Shown piece after piece: positions 2,608 through 10,799 of a DNA stretch of 12,167 bases. The stretch comes from a virus (Duplodnaviria; Heunggongvirae; Uroviricota; Caudoviricetes). Position numbers and translations under genes: made by a program. The notes beneath the pieces were generated by a model. It was not told the origin of the DNA, did no database searches, and saw nothing but the letters and a program-made list of their open reading frames with translations. Numbering within the stretch: the first letter of the stretch is position 1; the number at the start of each line of letters is the position of its first letter. The stretch lies in the IMG/VR virus record IMGVR_UViG_2744054912_000005. One strand, 5' to 3'.

Positions 2608-3257
2608 GCCGCCATCTCCCTGACCAGTTTTTCCGCCTGCTGGCGAACCTGCGCCAGAAACGCCTCACCACATGTCTCAAGTTCATCGCGCCCGATGTAG
2701 CTGATTGCCGGTCCCTTCCAGGTCTTATCGAAAACAGCAATAGCACCAGCGAAGAACGCTCCTGTCGGCACCTGCTTCTCGTCTTTCGGGATAAACCAGA
2801 CAGGCAGTTCAAAACCAATACGCCCGCGAATAAAAGCAATATGGTCTGCATCTTCCGGCCACCACACTTCGCTGGTGGCAGCTTTGATCAGGAAAACATA
2901 GCGCCCGCCCTTATCACGCATGGCACTGGCATGTTTCATGATGTAACGCATGCCGGTGATGTATTGCCCCTCATGCTGACTGGCGCGGCTGTATGGGGGA
3001 TTACCAAAGGCAGCACCTTTAAGCTCCGCAAGACGTTCTGACCAGTCATGCGCCAGCGCGTTGTCTTCCGCCGTGTAATACGCGGCACATTTGGCGTTAT
3101 CACCGTCAGTGAACAGATCCAGAACAAACGGGCCAAACAGGGTGTTAATTCCCCAGAAAATGTTGTCCGGCGTGCGCCACTGATCGCCCACTTCCTTCAG
3201 TTCATGGGCTGGTTTGTTCCGCAGTTCCACCAGCGCCTGGCAATATTTATTACTCAT
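2604..3257 (-). CDS. Phage-type DNA N6-adenine methyltransferase (Dam family, orphan)
   Basis: FGNPPYS catalytic motif IV (N/DPPY) in a 217-aa protein. ATG at 3257 overlaps the upstream stop as TAATG; the ORF track's longer 3290 start is a GTG inside the upstream gene. Confidence 0.8.
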   Translation of the reverse strand: MSNKYCQALVELRNKPAHELKEVGDQWRTPDNIFWGINTLFGPFVLDLFTDGDNAKCAAYYTAEDNALAHDWSERLAELKGAAFGNPPYSRASQHEGQYITGMRYIMKHASAMRDKGGRYVFLIKAATSEVWWPEDADHIAFIRGRIGFELPVWFIPKDEKQVPTGAFFAGAIAVFDKTWKGPAISYIGRDELETCGEAFLAQVRQQAEKLVREMAA

Positions 3258-5037: not shown

Positions 5038-5585
5038 GCGTTAGTTTCTCCACAGTCACGACACGCCACGGCGCCCGGAGCTGCACACTCGCGGGCGTCA
5101 TTACTTTCTGAAATGCAAAAAATTTTGTAGACCAGTGCTGCATGCTCCTGCAGCTTCGAAATTGAGAGGTACAGCTCATCGTTAATTGCTGTCTTCTCAT
5201 GCGGTTCCACTACACCGTCTTCAATTGCTGAACGAATCTGTTTTGAATAACTGCCGATCTGTTCAATGACCTCCAGCAGGCGTTGGTTGATATCGGCGTT
5301 GTCCACATCCTCGACATCAGGAAGAGACACAAAGACGCCATTTGCAGACTGCGCCACAGCGTCAGCAATGAAGTGAGTTCCACCAGCACGTTGCAAAATC
5401 ATTGCCCATCCCAGCGGGAAAATCTGATCGCCATCGGCACGAAGGCGGTTAAATAATGCGTTCTCTGTTACATCCAGCCAGTCAGCAGCTTCAGCGTACC
5501 CCCCCGGCAACGCTGCGATAGTTTTTCTGACAGCTTTCACGTACCACTCAGGCTGTTTTTCTACTTTCCAGTGATGCTTACCCAC
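5034..5585 (-). CDS. CII-like/YdaT-like early regulatory protein (tentative)
   Basis: 183-aa ORF immediately downstream of the Cro-like gene, with GTG start at 5585 preceded by a strong AGGAGG RBS. Position and size fit the cro/cII (YdaS/YdaT) module; no motif verified. Confidence 0.4.
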
Positions 5586-5838
5586 GGTTCACCTCCTGTT
5601 CCTGTGGTTTAAACCCATTCTGGTTTTGGCTAGATTGAAAACGTGCCGGATAAAGAATCTGCATTTCGCTGACTTCACCCTTAAAAAAATTGGCTAAACG
5701 TTCTGCAAGCTCGATAGATGGAATCTGCTCCAGCCTCTCAATACGACTCAACGTCGCTGGATTGACTTGAACACCCGCAGCAACATGCTGCAAAGTGAAA
5801 CCATGCGCCTTACGCACATTTCGTAATGGTGATTGCAT
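5578..5838 (-). CDS. Cro-like HTH (XRE family) transcriptional regulator
   Basis: 86-aa ORF with HTH signature LRNVRKAHGFTLQHVAAGVQVNPATLSRIERLEQIPSIELAERLANFF. Divergent from the cI-like gene across an operator-rich region. RBS GGAGG before ATG 5838. Confidence 0.7.
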   Translation of the reverse strand: MQSPLRNVRKAHGFTLQHVAAGVQVNPATLSRIERLEQIPSIELAERLANFFKGEVSEMQILYPARFQSSQNQNGFKPQEQEVNRG

Positions 5839-5935
5839 ATGCCCTCCAAATATTGCGCGTTATGCATGTTATTTCACGCAATTATTTTGCGCAAGTTGAT
5901 TTGCTTATCACGCAATAAAGAAATGTAATAAACGC
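5839..5935. promoter_or_regulatory. OR region: divergent PR/PRM promoters with TTGC-N7-GCAA operator sites
   Basis: Operator-like 15-mers TTGCGCGTTATGCAT (5853-5867) and TTGCTTATCACGCAA (5901-5915) plus the palindromic core TTGCGCAA (5887-5894). Candidate PR for cro on the minus strand: -35 TTGCGC (5894..5889), 17-bp spacer, -10 TAACAT (5871..5866). Confidence 0.6.
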
Positions 5936-6628
5936 ATGAACATAGGAAACCGAGTCAGACAACTTCGCCAAGCGAAGAACATGAAAATCGCCGATCTCGC
6001 TGAAGCAATAGGAGTAGATGCGGCGAACATCTCGCGCTTAGAAACGGGTAAGCAAAAACAATTTACCGAACAAACACTGAGTAATATTGCCAAGAGCTTA
6101 GGTGTTGATATTGCTGATCTCTTTACCTCTGCCCACAAAAGTAATACTGTATATAAAAACAGTAATAATGAGGATGTTGCGCAGGTGAAGGATGTGTTCC
6201 GTATTGAAATGCTGGATATCAGTGCCAGTGCGGGAAATGGCCTTATCCAGGGCGGTGATGTCATTGATGTGATTCATGCCATCGAATACAGAACTGATAA
6301 TGCTGTATCAATGTTCGGCGGACGACCAGCCAATCACATCAAAGTTATCAACGTTCGTGGGGACAGTATGTGTCCAACCATTGAGCCAGGAGATCTCATC
6401 TTCGTTGATGTCAGCATCAATCAGTTTGATGGTGATGGTATATATGTCTTTGGTTTTGATGACAAAATATACGTTAAAAGACTTCAAATGATTCCTGACA
6501 AACTGCTGGTGATTTCTGATAACCAGATTTACCGTGAATGGGGAATTACTAGCGAAAACGAACACCGATTCATGGTCTTTGGAAAGGTCTTAATCAGTCA
6601 GTCGCAAACCCTTAAGAGACATAATTAA
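5936..6628 (+). CDS. Phage CI-type repressor (N-terminal XRE HTH, C-terminal S24 LexA-like autopeptidase domain)
   Basis: 230-aa ORF. HTH NRVRQLRQAKNMKIADLAEAIGVDAANISRLETGK; candidate Ala-Gly cleavage site in ISASAGNGL; catalytic Ser in VRGDSMCPTIEPGDLIFVD and Lys in IYVKRLQ, as in LexA and lambda CI. Confidence 0.9.
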   Translation: MNIGNRVRQLRQAKNMKIADLAEAIGVDAANISRLETGKQKQFTEQTLSNIAKSLGVDIADLFTSAHKSNTVYKNSNNEDVAQVKDVFRIEMLDISASAGNGLIQGGDVIDVIHAIEYRTDNAVSMFGGRPANHIKVINVRGDSMCPTIEPGDLIFVDVSINQFDGDGIYVFGFDDKIYVKRLQMIPDKLLVISDNQIYREWGITSENEHRFMVFGKVLISQSQTLKRHN

Positions 6629-6647
6629 CCTCAATATCCCATCCATC

Positions 6648-6670
6648 GGCCACCGAAAGGTGGCTTTTTA
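6648..6670 (+). terminator. Intrinsic terminator downstream of cI
   Basis: GGCCACC-GAAA-GGTGGCT hairpin (6-7 bp stem, GAAA tetraloop) followed immediately by TTTTT, 20 bp after the cI stop. Confidence 0.8.
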
Positions 6671-6682
6671 TTACCTATAAAT

Positions 6683-6733
6683 TTGCATATATCGCAAATA
6701 TCACTTGCATATCTCGCAATTTAATTTTATCTT
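6683..6733 (+). promoter_or_regulatory. OL/PL-like region: two 15-bp palindromic operators and a candidate rightward promoter
   Basis: TTGCATATATCGCAA (6683-6697) and TTGCATATCTCGCAA (6705-6719), centre-to-centre 22 bp, sharing the TTGC-N7-GCAA form of the OR sites. Candidate promoter: -35 TTGCAT (6705-6710), 17-bp spacer, -10 TATCTT (6728-6733). Confidence 0.6.
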
Positions 6734-6889
6734 TTGTTCCAGACCAACTACAGGATTACAACAAAATCTGGTTGCAACACGGTGCATGTGTCGTAAGCAG
6801 TCAGTAAATGTCAAAAACGAACAGGCAGGACGCCCACGAAGTAGCCGCCTGGGGCATATGAAGTCCAGGATGATTCGTTAGCAACAAAA

Positions 6890-6922
6890 AAGCGCCCTAC
6901 AGGACGCTTAGCTCTTTAACAA
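6890..6922 (+). promoter_or_regulatory. nut-like antitermination element: short hairpin followed by an rrn-type boxA
   Basis: GCTCTTTAACAA at 6911-6922 is identical to the E. coli rrn boxA core (TGCTCTTTAACAA). It is immediately preceded by an imperfect hairpin AAGCGCC-CTACA-GGACGCTT (6890-6909) and lies about 45 nt upstream of the first early-left gene. Confidence 0.55.
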
Positions 6923-6967
6923 TCTGGTCCCCATCAACAAGTAACTGATAACTTGAGGAGATGTGAA

Positions 6968-7174
6968 ATGCACAAAACAGAACCCAAAATCGTCGCGCCT
7001 GGCTACACAGATGAGGAAATTTATGAGTGGATGACAAAGAAGCTGGCAGCTATAAACCAGCTTCGTGAAGTGCTGTCTTATCGACAGGAAACAATAGACT
7101 CCTTAAAAAAACTGGATCAGGAAATCACGGTTTTATCACAGGATGTTACTTTAGATATTGTGCAGACAAATTAG
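6968..7174 (+). CDS. Hypothetical 68-aa protein (first gene of the early-left transcript); no recognisable domain
   Basis: ATG at 6968 preceded by GAGGAG at 6955-6960; the TTG at 6953 in the ORF track is a less likely start. Predicted helical, charged protein MHKTEPKIVAPGYTDEEIYEWMTKKLAAINQLREVL... in an AT-rich segment. Confidence 0.55.
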   Translation: MHKTEPKIVAPGYTDEEIYEWMTKKLAAINQLREVLSYRQETIDSLKKLDQEITVLSQDVTLDIVQTN

Positions 7175-7580
7175 GATCCCATTCATTTTCGTCAAAATCA
7201 TCAAAGTGATGAATTTGTGATCTCCAGTCTCGATAATCTAAAAATTTCTGGGCGGTTACGCTTATTTTATCAAGTGTGAGTTCATCCTGAATTGAAAGAA
7301 GAAGTTCATCAAATTTCATCTCATTAATCTGTTTTGGCATCCAGTGATGCTTCATCAGAATAAGGTGAACCAGAGCCTTTTTCCCATTCAATTGATTATA
7401 GGGAGTGCCGAATTTCTTCCGGTGCTCATGTAAGACAAGGTCCAAAAGAGTAAGTAATGTTGCCCTTGATTCAACTTTGCTTATTTCGACTGATGACACT
7501 ACCCCACTGATTTCAATGCCCCGATACTTTCCAACATTTTCACAGTGGGATTTGTACAGCGTATAGATATTACCGGACAT
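7146..7580 (-). CDS. Hypothetical 144-aa protein, antisense to the early-left transcript; no recognisable domain
   Basis: ATG at 7580 with RBS AAGGA upstream. AT-rich. The 3' end overlaps the convergent 68-aa gene by 29 bp (7146-7174). Soluble, with no transmembrane segment evident. Confidence 0.55.
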   Translation of the reverse strand: MSGNIYTLYKSHCENVGKYRGIEISGVVSSVEISKVESRATLLTLLDLVLHEHRKKFGTPYNQLNGKKALVHLILMKHHWMPKQINEMKFDELLLSIQDELTLDKISVTAQKFLDYRDWRSQIHHFDDFDENEWDPNLSAQYLK

Positions 7581-7595
7581 TTCTTTTCCTTTTGC

Positions 7596-7645
7596 GTTGT
7601 TGGGGATAACCAGATTAACCGAATCCTTGTTGTTGGGGAATAACT
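7596..7645. repeat. Two direct copies of a 15-16-bp motif (GTTGTTGGGGATAAC / GTTGTTGGGGAATAAC) upstream of the 144-aa gene
   Basis: Seen directly at 7596-7610 and 7630-7645, spacing 34 bp, within 20-65 bp upstream of the 7580 start codon on the minus strand. Confidence 0.5.
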
Positions 7646-7864
7646 AGGTCCACCTCGCCTGATGTGGCTAAAAGCAGGCACATAACAGCTAAGTATTTTC
7701 AACCAGAGAGAATCCTTAGCGTTGTGGTGAATGCGGCTCAGCGCACGCGGGTTAAGGTTGAGGCTGACAGTCGACCTTCTGTGGATACCCACCCGCCTGG
7801 TGTGCAACCTTCGCCAGGCACCGGGAGGCACCCGGCACCACAACTTTATGCTGTGTGTAGTCCT

Positions 7865-7912
7865 GGCGGTACCAGTTTGTACCCTTGCTTCCGGCTGGTA
7901 CCGTCCTTTTTA
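7865..7912 (+). terminator. Intrinsic terminator-like hairpin with T-run at the end of a GC-rich non-coding stretch
   Basis: CGGTACCAG (7867-7875) pairs perfectly with CTGGTACCG (7895-7903), extendable to 7865/7905, followed by CTTTTTA (7906-7912). The 19-nt loop contains further GTACC self-complementarity. Confidence 0.55.
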
Positions 7913-8000
7913 CAAAACAGAGAAGAGCATCACCGGACGACGGGCTCATAACCCAATCCATCCGGGCGGCTGCCACCGCAGGTGTTCTTCTCTGTTTTGT
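7912..8000 (+). other. Long hairpin / inverted repeat: 18-bp stem (17 Watson-Crick pairs plus 1 G-U) enclosing a ~50-nt GC-rich loop
   Basis: ACAAAACAGAGAAGAGCA (7912-7929) is complementary to TGTTCTTCTCTGTTTTGT (7983-8000) with a single G-T wobble. It lies in non-coding sequence between the terminator-like hairpin and the YfdR-like gene. Confidence 0.5.
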
Positions 8001-8124
8001 GGAGAAACTAACCGCCCCTACGGGGGCATTTATGGAAATGTAATTGACTCAATAATCGCCGGACGGTGATGGCTTCCTTTTACCCGAATTCAGCGCGGTG
8101 CAGCGCATATACGTGGAGAACAAA

Positions 8125-10723: not shown

Positions 10724-10799
10724 TGGTGCCGATAATAGGAGTCGAACCTACGACCTTCGCATTACGAATGCGCTGCTCTACCAACTGAGCTATATCGGC
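10724..10799 (-). tRNA. thrW: tRNA-Thr (anticodon CGU)
   Basis: Minus-strand sequence GCCGATATAGCTCAGTTGGTAGAGCAGCGCATTCGTAATGCGAAGGTCGTAGGTTCGACTCCTATTATCGGCACCA folds as a cloverleaf with anticodon loop TTCGTAA (CGU), T-loop GGTTCGACTCC and 3' CCA. It sits beside proA as thrW does in E. coli. Confidence 0.9.

Follow-up and report, generated by a model that had tools for sequence, protein, structure and literature searches.

A tailed-phage sequence (Caudoviricetes; IMG/VR record IMGVR_UViG_2744054912_000005) contains a GC-rich stretch that poses a simple question: what kind of gene, if any, resides there? The stretch is preceded by a cI-like repressor gene and by two small accessory genes acquired by insertion ("morons"), and it is followed by yfdR-...-xis-int. 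The whole stretch of DNA analyzed here, referred to as the window, is 12,167 nt long and is the immunity-to-integrase arm of a lambdoid prophage of the SfV/ST64B/mEp460/CPS-53 type. An initial annotation, made from the sequence alone, took positions 7650-7912 for a structured RNA that ends at an intrinsic terminator, and not for a gene encoding a protein. That reading is supported by a match to the STnc100 RNA family, by covariation among 86 homologues, by the lack of conservation of the open reading frames (ORFs) in the stretch, and by a 193-nt RNA that has been mapped at the syntenic locus by rapid amplification of cDNA ends (RACE) and northern blotting (PMC7719688). The plus strand of 7720-7911 is very probably a gene for a structured prophage small RNA (sRNA) of ~190 nt that belongs to the STnc100/PasD/EcOnc27/sRNA-17 class, would by analogy with its relatives bind Hfq, and carries a terminator that would also gate transcription of yfdR-xis-int.

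The compositional claim of the initial annotation is borne out, as GC content is 0.57-0.59 at 7700-7999 and 0.35-0.42 in the flanks. The annotation had been unable to name an RNA family. Such a family does exist, and the covariance-model scan that had been suggested, run against Rfam with permissive filters, aligns 7691-7913 with the full length of the STnc100 model (RF02076; model positions 1-206 of 206; 43.1 bits, E 6.7e-8). The RNA is assigned to the plus strand because of its G-U pairs and because the Rfam match occurs on that strand only. The structured stretch is shorter than had been thought: positions 7650-7719 are not conserved in ST64B or phage P1, and the conserved RNA begins at 7720/7721, so that the proposal holds for 7720-7911 and fails for the 5′ portion.

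The predicted transcript of ~192 nt (7720-7911) comprises an STnc100-type core, a linker, and a terminator, with ends that were placed using the Rfam match, the position of published sRNA-17 RACE primers on mEp460 (2854-3046 of the locus extracted from that phage), and a pairwise alignment. The core is a five-helix junction of 124 nt (7721-7844) closed by stem P1, in which GUUGUGGUG (7721-7729) pairs with CACCACAAC (7836-7844), an arrangement found in the minimum free energy (MFE) structure and also evident from covariation. Hairpin a (7733-7748; GCG-GC...GC-CGC) displays a conserved CUCAGCG loop and is followed by a variable middle region (7749-7792), which folds by MFE into two hairpins (7754-7761/7771-7778 and 7781-7784/7789-7792). 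Hairpin d (7795-7819) contains an 8-bp helix of GCCUGGUG with CGCCAGGC (7795-7802/7812-7819, by MFE), and hairpin e (7821-7835; CCGGG-AGGCA-CCCGG), whose sequence is invariant, abuts the 3′ strand of stem P1. Thus, the multi-helix junction typical of the family, closed by a GGUG/CACC stem and bearing hairpins a, d, and e, is represented in the window by all of its helices, and its two invariant blocks are found at 7726-7732 (GGUGAAU) and 7820-7839 (ACCGGGAGGCACCCGGCACC). The U/G-rich linker that follows (UUUAUGCUGUGUGUAGUCCU, 7845-7864) is unpaired in the centroid structure, and therefore largely single-stranded, and may serve as a seed or as an Hfq-contact region. The 3′ end is formed by intrinsic terminator "B" (7865-7911), with a 13-bp stem (7865-7877/7893-7905) and a T-run at 7907-7911.

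Comparison with the pairings proposed earlier gives a mixed picture. The plus-strand terminator is real, including its TTTTT tract, although its stem is longer than the 9-11 bp that had been suggested. The pairing of CCGGG with CCCGG is likewise correct, corresponding to 7821-7825/7831-7835 of hairpin e, which is invariant across the family. However, CGCCAGG (7811-7817) does not pair with CCTGGCG (7862-7868), which overlaps the 5′ arm of the terminator; its actual partner is 7796-7802 in hairpin d. Nor does GGTTG (7759-7763) pair with CAACC (7805-7809), since the former lies in the hairpin formed by 7754-7761/7771-7778, where its partner is 7774-7778, and the latter resides in the loop of hairpin d.

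This architecture is borne out by comparison. One genome per species was scanned for ACCGGGARGCACCCGGCACC, which yielded at least 120 stretches; among those listed, nearly all belong to Enterobacterales, often in prophage-like surroundings and at times as two or three tandem copies, and 119 of the listed copies have GGUGAA 63-115 nt upstream of the motif. The same spacing separates GGUGAAU from ACCGGGAGGCACCCGGCACC in more than 100 copies across Enterobacterales genomes. The bases that flank GGUG...CACC covary (for example GUUGU/ACAAC, GCAU/AUGC, and CUGC/GCAG), with 103 distinct flank pairs. Alignment of 86 diverse Enterobacterales copies with MAFFT, with the window as first row, was evaluated against controls in which helix partners were slid by 1-3 columns and against 500 shuffles. 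For the five helices, 96.7% of cells pair, compared with 39-46% after sliding, and 234 cells are compensatory, compared with 38-57. The covariation score, which does not exceed 0.10 in the controls, reaches 0.357, and none of the 500 shuffles attains the observed values.

These homologues therefore provide the covariation that had been sought, and the support is distributed unevenly among the helices. Helix e served as the search motif and so lends no independent support; its sequence is identical in 86 of 86 sequences collected with this motif, and no block of the Rfam model is better conserved. Invariance in the alignment extends to four pairs of stem P1 (GGUG/CACC), whereas the other positions of that stem covary. 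Hairpin a differs from the CCCCC/GGGG variant of the Rfam seed by compensatory changes at three pairs, with C-G replaced by G-C in 11-13 of the 86 sequences. The variable middle region is bounded family-wide by a covarying 3-bp closing helix that surrounds a segment of variable length, and all four modeled pairs of hairpin d change on both sides across the family, with the window row shifted by one column at hairpin d in the MAFFT alignment. The structure is thus conserved by covariation, and the window RNA belongs to the family at the level of both sequence and structure.

An RNA from the corresponding locus of another prophage has been characterized experimentally. sRNA-17 of E. coli K1 strain RS218 is a 193-nt RNA encoded within an mEp460-like prophage and defined by 5′ and 3′ RACE and northern blotting (PMC7719688). 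With mEp460 and the published primers used in place of the RS218 genome, the full-length primers, the RACE primers, and the northern probe all map to the mEp460 segment given above. Both the northern probe and the 5′ RACE primers are complementary to the yfdP-coding strand, and so the RNA has the orientation of the window plus strand. It starts with CGUUGUGGUGAAUGCG, one base before stem P1, and ends in the terminator U-tract. At this locus, then, a related element gives rise to a discrete, accumulating transcript whose 3′ end is at this terminator (PMC7719688), and by homology the window RNA would span 7720-7911. The window copy also links sRNA-17 to STnc100, because it shares the ends, fold, and locus of the former and matches the model of the latter. 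sRNA-17 itself yields no Rfam match at E values up to 10, and its discoverers likewise report no Rfam homologue; their category of "degenerative sRNA-17" may cover variants with a different interior, such as that of the window (PMC7719688).

Similar cores can be recognized elsewhere. STnc100 core matches score 39.5-40.3 bits in SfV and PhiR49 and 33-35 bits in ST64B and phage P1, and ST64B has a terminator of other stem sequence and the same stem-plus-T-run structure. An STnc100-type core is also present downstream of stx2 (PMC12370729), where the match is overlapped by EcOnc27/sRNA103, an Hfq-bound RNA (PMC4104026, PMC12711010, PMC7873438). PasD is Hfq-dependent and has many partners in RIL-seq data (PMC8550237), and it is reported to share a fold with STnc100 (bioRxiv 10.64898/2026.05.13.724894). 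In phage P1, an unannotated STnc100-type core resides at 70080-70199 between upl and tciA (2504-2623 of the extracted locus), 34 nt before tciA. It forms part of the ban operon, which is under C1 control and includes three tRNA genes along with a dicF-like region. Tandem cores, in two or three copies spaced 220-560 nt apart, are found in Superficieibacter, Pantoea, and others (loci L046, L047, L065, L089, and L110), with several of the copies followed by their own terminator.

Among the three roles that the initial annotation had offered (an sRNA, an antitermination RNA analogous to HK022 put, and a regulated terminator), the first provides the best fit, and a regulated terminator in the early-left operon is compatible with it as a second role. 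In the mechanism we propose, the RNA would be released by termination at 7907-7911 and, by analogy with its relatives, stabilized by Hfq through the terminator/U-tail module. It would then act in trans by base-pairing, with the linker at 7845-7864 or the variable loops serving as seed. In cis, terminator B would block unmodified RNA polymerase from entering element C, a second structured RNA described below, and yfdR-xis-int, so that only antiterminated early-left transcripts would pass, presumably by means of a boxA-like site at 6911-6922.

Several observations weigh against an sRNA of this class. The RF02076 score falls below the gathering score of 47, and nothing in the window is reported by Rfam at gathering thresholds. 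The low score is attributable to hairpin a, which has G-C where the seed has C-G, and the window copy belongs to a subfamily that shares this replacement. Folding energy alone is unexceptional (z = -1.9 for 7720-7912, -2.4 for 7691-7913, and -0.95 for the reverse strand), and the evidence beyond chance comes from the covariation and the Rfam E-value. By a crude test, a terminator occurs within 160 nt of roughly 40% of family cores, with about half of the cores having none nearby, and the phage P1 core leads straight into tciA, so that the conserved core may serve some purpose other than that of a classical trans-acting sRNA. The seed-pairing model does not account for the invariance of hairpins a and e. 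Finally, no sigma-70-like promoter was found upstream of the RNA, where the sequence differs from that preceding sRNA-17. A GCTAAGT sequence noted by eye upstream in both the window and mEp460, at different distances, is not convincing as a promoter.

Immediately downstream of the sRNA, and outside the coordinates considered previously, is a Y-shaped RNA on the plus strand, which we refer to as element C (7906-8005). Its 25-bp stem (7907-7931/7981-8005), the 5′ strand of which begins with the U-tract of terminator B, supports two arms, at 7933-7965 and 7966-7979, and the element has a folding z-score of -7.8. Arm 1 contains GGG-CUCAUAA-CCC (7942-7954) within a 14-mer at 7941-7954 (CGGGCTCATAACCC; CGGGCUCAUAACCC) that is identical to the anticodon stem-loop region, consisting of three G-C pairs and CUCAUAA, of a 77-nt E. 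coli tRNA-Met gene. This gene, four copies of which are present in each of 5,426 E. coli genomes, is that of the initiator tRNA.

A conserved 21-mer from element C, GACGGGCTCATWAYCCAATCC, occurs in at least 120 IMG/VR contigs, with 77 distinct flank variants among the matches listed. Two architectures are apparent. In 27 variants of type I, 98.3% of cells pair (41-53% when slid) and 42 cells are compensatory (0-7 when slid), and the many G-U pairs on the plus strand would be mismatches on the other. Type I copies nearly always follow a terminator and, among ~115 loci, precede yfdP in 82 and yfdR in 20. Type II copies, found in Klebsiella phages, begin immediately behind the final tRNA of an array that lies downstream of Q, with the 21-mer starting ~20 nt after that tRNA, and form a three-way junction of ~70 nt with a 6-bp outer stem and an (A/G)CCA end (e.g. 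L006 2500-2580; also L141, L143, L178, L182, L191, L208, and L230); they are called by neither ARAGORN nor Rfam. Element C of the window has no match in Rfam, including the tRNA model, and ARAGORN recognizes no cloverleaf in it. Of 5,426 complete E. coli genomes, 2,492 (46%) carry the element with at least 90% identity, usually in the order terminator, C, yfdP. A non-exhaustive literature search for initiator-tRNA mimics in prophages found nothing relevant. Element C is apparently an undescribed RNA element, more novel than the sRNA itself; being widespread, strongly structured, and absent from Rfam, it makes the better target for new biology.

The surroundings of the two RNAs are those of an early-left arm. 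A cro-like gene (5578-5838, minus strand) and a LexA-family cI-like repressor gene (5936-6628), which is followed by a terminator, are accompanied by TTGC-N7-GCAA repeats, TTGC(A/T)TAT(A/C)(T/A)CGCAA, that lie in the cro/cI gap (5901-5915) and on the other side of the cI-like gene (6683-6697 and 6705-6719) and probably serve as the OR and OL sites of this immunity type. On the plus strand, ~170 nt downstream of the OL-like pair, a hairpin, AAGCGCCCUACAGGACGCUU, is followed by GCTCTTTAACAA (6891-6922 in all, with the 12-mer at 6911-6922). The 12-mer is an exact boxA-like sequence of the rrn/lambda nut type, and the combination suggests a nutL-like site. Beyond it are a 68-amino acid (aa) ORF (6968-7174) and a convergent ECs1072-family gene (7146-7580, minus strand). 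Neither the 68-aa ORF nor SfV orf33 is arginine-rich, and nothing resembling an N protein is evident. A 54-bp stretch at 7597-7650, immediately before the RNA, repeats the 3′ end of the cI-like gene (compare 6518-6552). This recombination scar identifies the moron block (6630-7596) as an insertion, and other phages have mosaic breakpoints at 7596, 7650, and 7705.

On the 3′ side, the gene order is yfdR, a yfdS-like gene, yfdT, xis, and int, and the integration site adjoins proA and tRNA-Thr(CGU), which at 10724-10799 is the sole ARAGORN call in the window. In SfV, ST64B, PhiR49, and mEp460, the same RNA region lies directly upstream of yfdP-yfdQ-yfdR. In the window, yfdP and yfdQ are missing (at 8006-8124) and element C is followed directly by yfdR. 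Their absence is a recurrent variant rather than a private deletion, because the same arrangement is found in SfII and in the 20 type I loci that lead into yfdR. A small GC hairpin between element C and yfdR (CGCCCCUACGGGGGCA, 8013-8028; strand unspecified) is replaced in other phages by a different hairpin, CGACCUUGCAGGGUCG. E. coli K-12 CPS-53, tried as a reference, is missing the whole RNA block. Adjacent matches to C4 antisense RNA and isrK occur within early-right "transcriptional regulator/antirepressor" genes of SfV (L002 726-914), ST64B (L003 909-1097), and mEp460 (L007 323-511), on the minus strand of those loci. An assignment of the window RNA to the C4/IsrK immunity RNAs, suggested by a GGCACCA motif, was rejected, as in those phages they lie on the other strand in the early-right operon and the window prophage has neither.

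The alternative that survives best is that the locus is mainly a cis-acting leader or attenuator, in which the core, terminator B, and element C form the untranslated leader of the early-left operon (yfdP/yfdR-xis-int) and set how much transcription reaches it, the 190-nt RNA being a by-product. We consider this possible, though on balance unlikely, and it is compatible with an sRNA gene rather than exclusive of it. The position of the RNA between the OL-like operators and boxA-like site on one side and the yfdR-int genes on the other speaks for such a leader, and terminator plus element C is followed by yfdP or yfdR in 102 of ~115 type I loci. Moreover, replacement of the interior, or core, of sRNA-17 raised the adjacent yfdP 2^6.6-fold and yfdR 2^4.1-fold (PMC7719688). 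In that deletion strain, yfdP and yfdR are the most de-repressed genes and are also those immediately downstream, which suggests a cis effect not discussed by the authors (PMC7719688). A cis or cassette effect is more economical than trans regulation because both genes adjoin sRNA-17, and with a terminator at the gate of the excision/integration arm the de-repression may be a cis effect. On the other hand, the deletion result may be a cassette artefact, and terminator plus C also occurs without the canonical core. The same core, in turn, is found upstream of many unrelated genes, including OMP-like morons and holins, as well as downstream of stx2 (PMC12370729) and in tandem arrays. The genes downstream of 115 cores are heterogeneous, and the idea that the core is a gene-specific leader was rejected on this ground.

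A different possibility is that the core works by a tRNA-like logic in the processing or stabilization of polycistronic phage transcripts, as a structured punctuation element that RNases (P, E, or III) use to define or protect transcript ends. The phage P1 copy, in its operon with three tRNAs and a dicF-like region, is consistent with such a role, as are the 5′ RACE end of sRNA-17, 1 nt from the base of stem P1 with no promoter detected, the direct stacking of hairpin e on stem P1 in the manner of a T-arm on an acceptor stem, and the overtly tRNA-like character of the neighboring element C. However, no single-stranded NCCA follows stem P1, neither ARAGORN nor the Rfam tRNA model finds anything (no tRNA or tmRNA is called in the RNA region by either program), and the Hfq-dependence of the relatives fits an sRNA role, all of which makes a processing module quite improbable. 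A CCA tail on the core was considered and rejected, as the CACCA in question lies inside stem P1 and does not form a tRNA-like 3′ end.

Equally doubtful is a composite scheme in which element C represents an undescribed tRNA-mimicking class, its invariant arm GACGGGCUCAUAACCCAAUCC copying the anticodon arm of initiator tRNA and engaging a factor that recognizes tRNAfMet. In Klebsiella phages it would be a free, CCA-ending array member, and in nearly half of E. coli a long-stem leader, probably processed by RNase III, before yfdP/yfdR; the STnc100-type core and terminator would then constitute the upstream half of a cis-regulatory leader that controls entry into xis-int. Conceivable factors are a VapC/MvpT-type toxin, for which C would act as a decoy, methionyl-tRNA synthetase, and the 30S P site. 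That RNase III processes the long helix, and that a tRNAfMet-binding factor recognizes arm 1, are both hypothetical.

HK022 put, the analogy raised initially, is a two-stem-loop RNA of ~70 nt that lies directly downstream of its early promoter. A put-like function, in which the transcribing RNA polymerase, altered in cis by the folded core, would read past terminator B and those beyond it, draws on the presence of a structured RNA ahead of terminators in an early-left operon with no evident N-like protein. The analogy is nonetheless unsupported, and we regard it as very unlikely: the core is a 124-nt five-helix junction rather than two stem-loops, it lies ~1 kb from the putative PL (near the OL-like operators at 6683-6719) with a convergent gene between, and a boxA-like nut site is already present upstream. 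In addition, RACE shows that in vivo the homologous RNA goes no further than the next terminator, the terminators behind other family members set the 3′ ends of sRNAs (PMC4104026), and family cores precede unrelated genes, OMP-like morons and holins among them.

The least tenable alternative is a protein-coding gene or its decayed remnant. The stretch had been described as ORF-poor, with junk in every frame; mechanical ORFs of 95 and 112 aa (plus strand) and 74 aa (minus strand, 7752-7976) do exist, and the description is sound insofar as none is conserved. The 74-aa ORF, taken as 7755-7976, matches phrog_3651 (E 5.8e-50), and RefSeq/PGAP annotates a frameshifted "hypothetical protein" pseudogene over 7724-8043 (L001 8225-8544). 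These two records notwithstanding, a coding origin is scarcely credible, as ORF frames and lengths differ among the window, SfV, ST64B, and mEp460, Pfam gives no hit, related proteins number just 40 among 5.8 billion (confined to Escherichia and Salmonella, 51-128 aa in length, for the most part partial, and in several cases joined to unrelated domains) against the presence of the DNA in ~1,800-2,500 complete E. coli genomes, and substitutions in the RNA helices of both the core and element C are compensatory. The RefSeq pseudogene and PHROG 3651 are apparently spurious, the product of ORF calling on RNA genes that are conserved and poor in stop codons. About one-third of complete E. coli genomes carry this exact RNA, labeled as a hypothetical protein or pseudogene or not at all, and it should be annotated as an STnc100-type sRNA.

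Comparison with known systems places the two RNAs more precisely. Element C shares 14 nt with the anticodon stem-loop of initiator tRNA, and its Klebsiella-phage copies end tRNA arrays with (A/G)CCA after a 6-bp stem; unlike a tRNA, it has no D arm or T loop, and the E. coli-type copies have a 25-bp "acceptor" helix without CCA. With HK022 putL/putR, the sRNA has in common that it is a structured RNA in an early operon of a lambdoid phage without an obvious N protein, but it differs in size, architecture, and distance from the promoter, and its homologue terminates at the next terminator instead of suppressing it. DicF of the Qin prophage is likewise an sRNA in an early-left-type operon of a lambdoid prophage, and the terminator hairpin of the window shares GGCGGUAYCAGUUU with it. 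However, at 15.7 bits (E 0.15 on 81 nt) the match to the DicF model (RF00039; 7852-7906, plus strand) falls short of the gathering score of 48, the similarity is confined to the hairpin, and a relationship was rejected; the hairpin may reflect shared ancestry of prophage early-left sRNA terminators, or chance. PasD1 and PasD2 of enteropathogenic E. coli E2348/69 are also prophage-encoded and Hfq-dependent, with a reported STnc100 fold, a likeness known from description rather than from sequence, and they lie near Q and lpxR in the late region.

sRNA-17 occupies the same slot as the window RNA, in the order repressor, minus-strand morons, RNA, element C, yfdP/yfdR, and is encoded on the yfdR strand. 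The two are of nearly equal length (192 nt in the window and 193 nt) and have the same overall fold plan; their first 17 nt (CGUUGUGGUGAAUGCG...) and the 3′ strands of their P1 stems are identical, and their terminators (GGCGGUACCAG...CUGGUACCG) are nearly so, the shared ends being a matter of sequence identity rather than of transcript mapping in this strain. In pairwise alignment, by contrast, the interior of the core is largely of other sequence, hairpin e of sRNA-17 is CCGG-AGAUCAGCA-CCGG instead of the invariant motif, the upstream (promoter/ArcA) region is unrelated over 100 nt between the window and mEp460, and the window is without yfdP and yfdQ. With STnc100, the window RNA shares alignment over the full-length model, the closing stem, the GGUGAAU junction, the invariant CACCGGGAGGCACCCGGCACC hairpin, the covarying hairpins, a 3′ terminator, and a prophage location. 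It differs in its terminator, a longer hairpin of different sequence that aligns to that of the model with an 18-nt insertion, and in its residence in the early-left arm by the immunity region rather than downstream of Q/PR′. The window RNA is thus a new, sub-threshold member of a known but poorly understood family, in a slightly different prophage position, and together sRNA-17, STnc100, EcOnc27, and PasD appear to form a single superfamily that shares a five-helix core with deep covariation.

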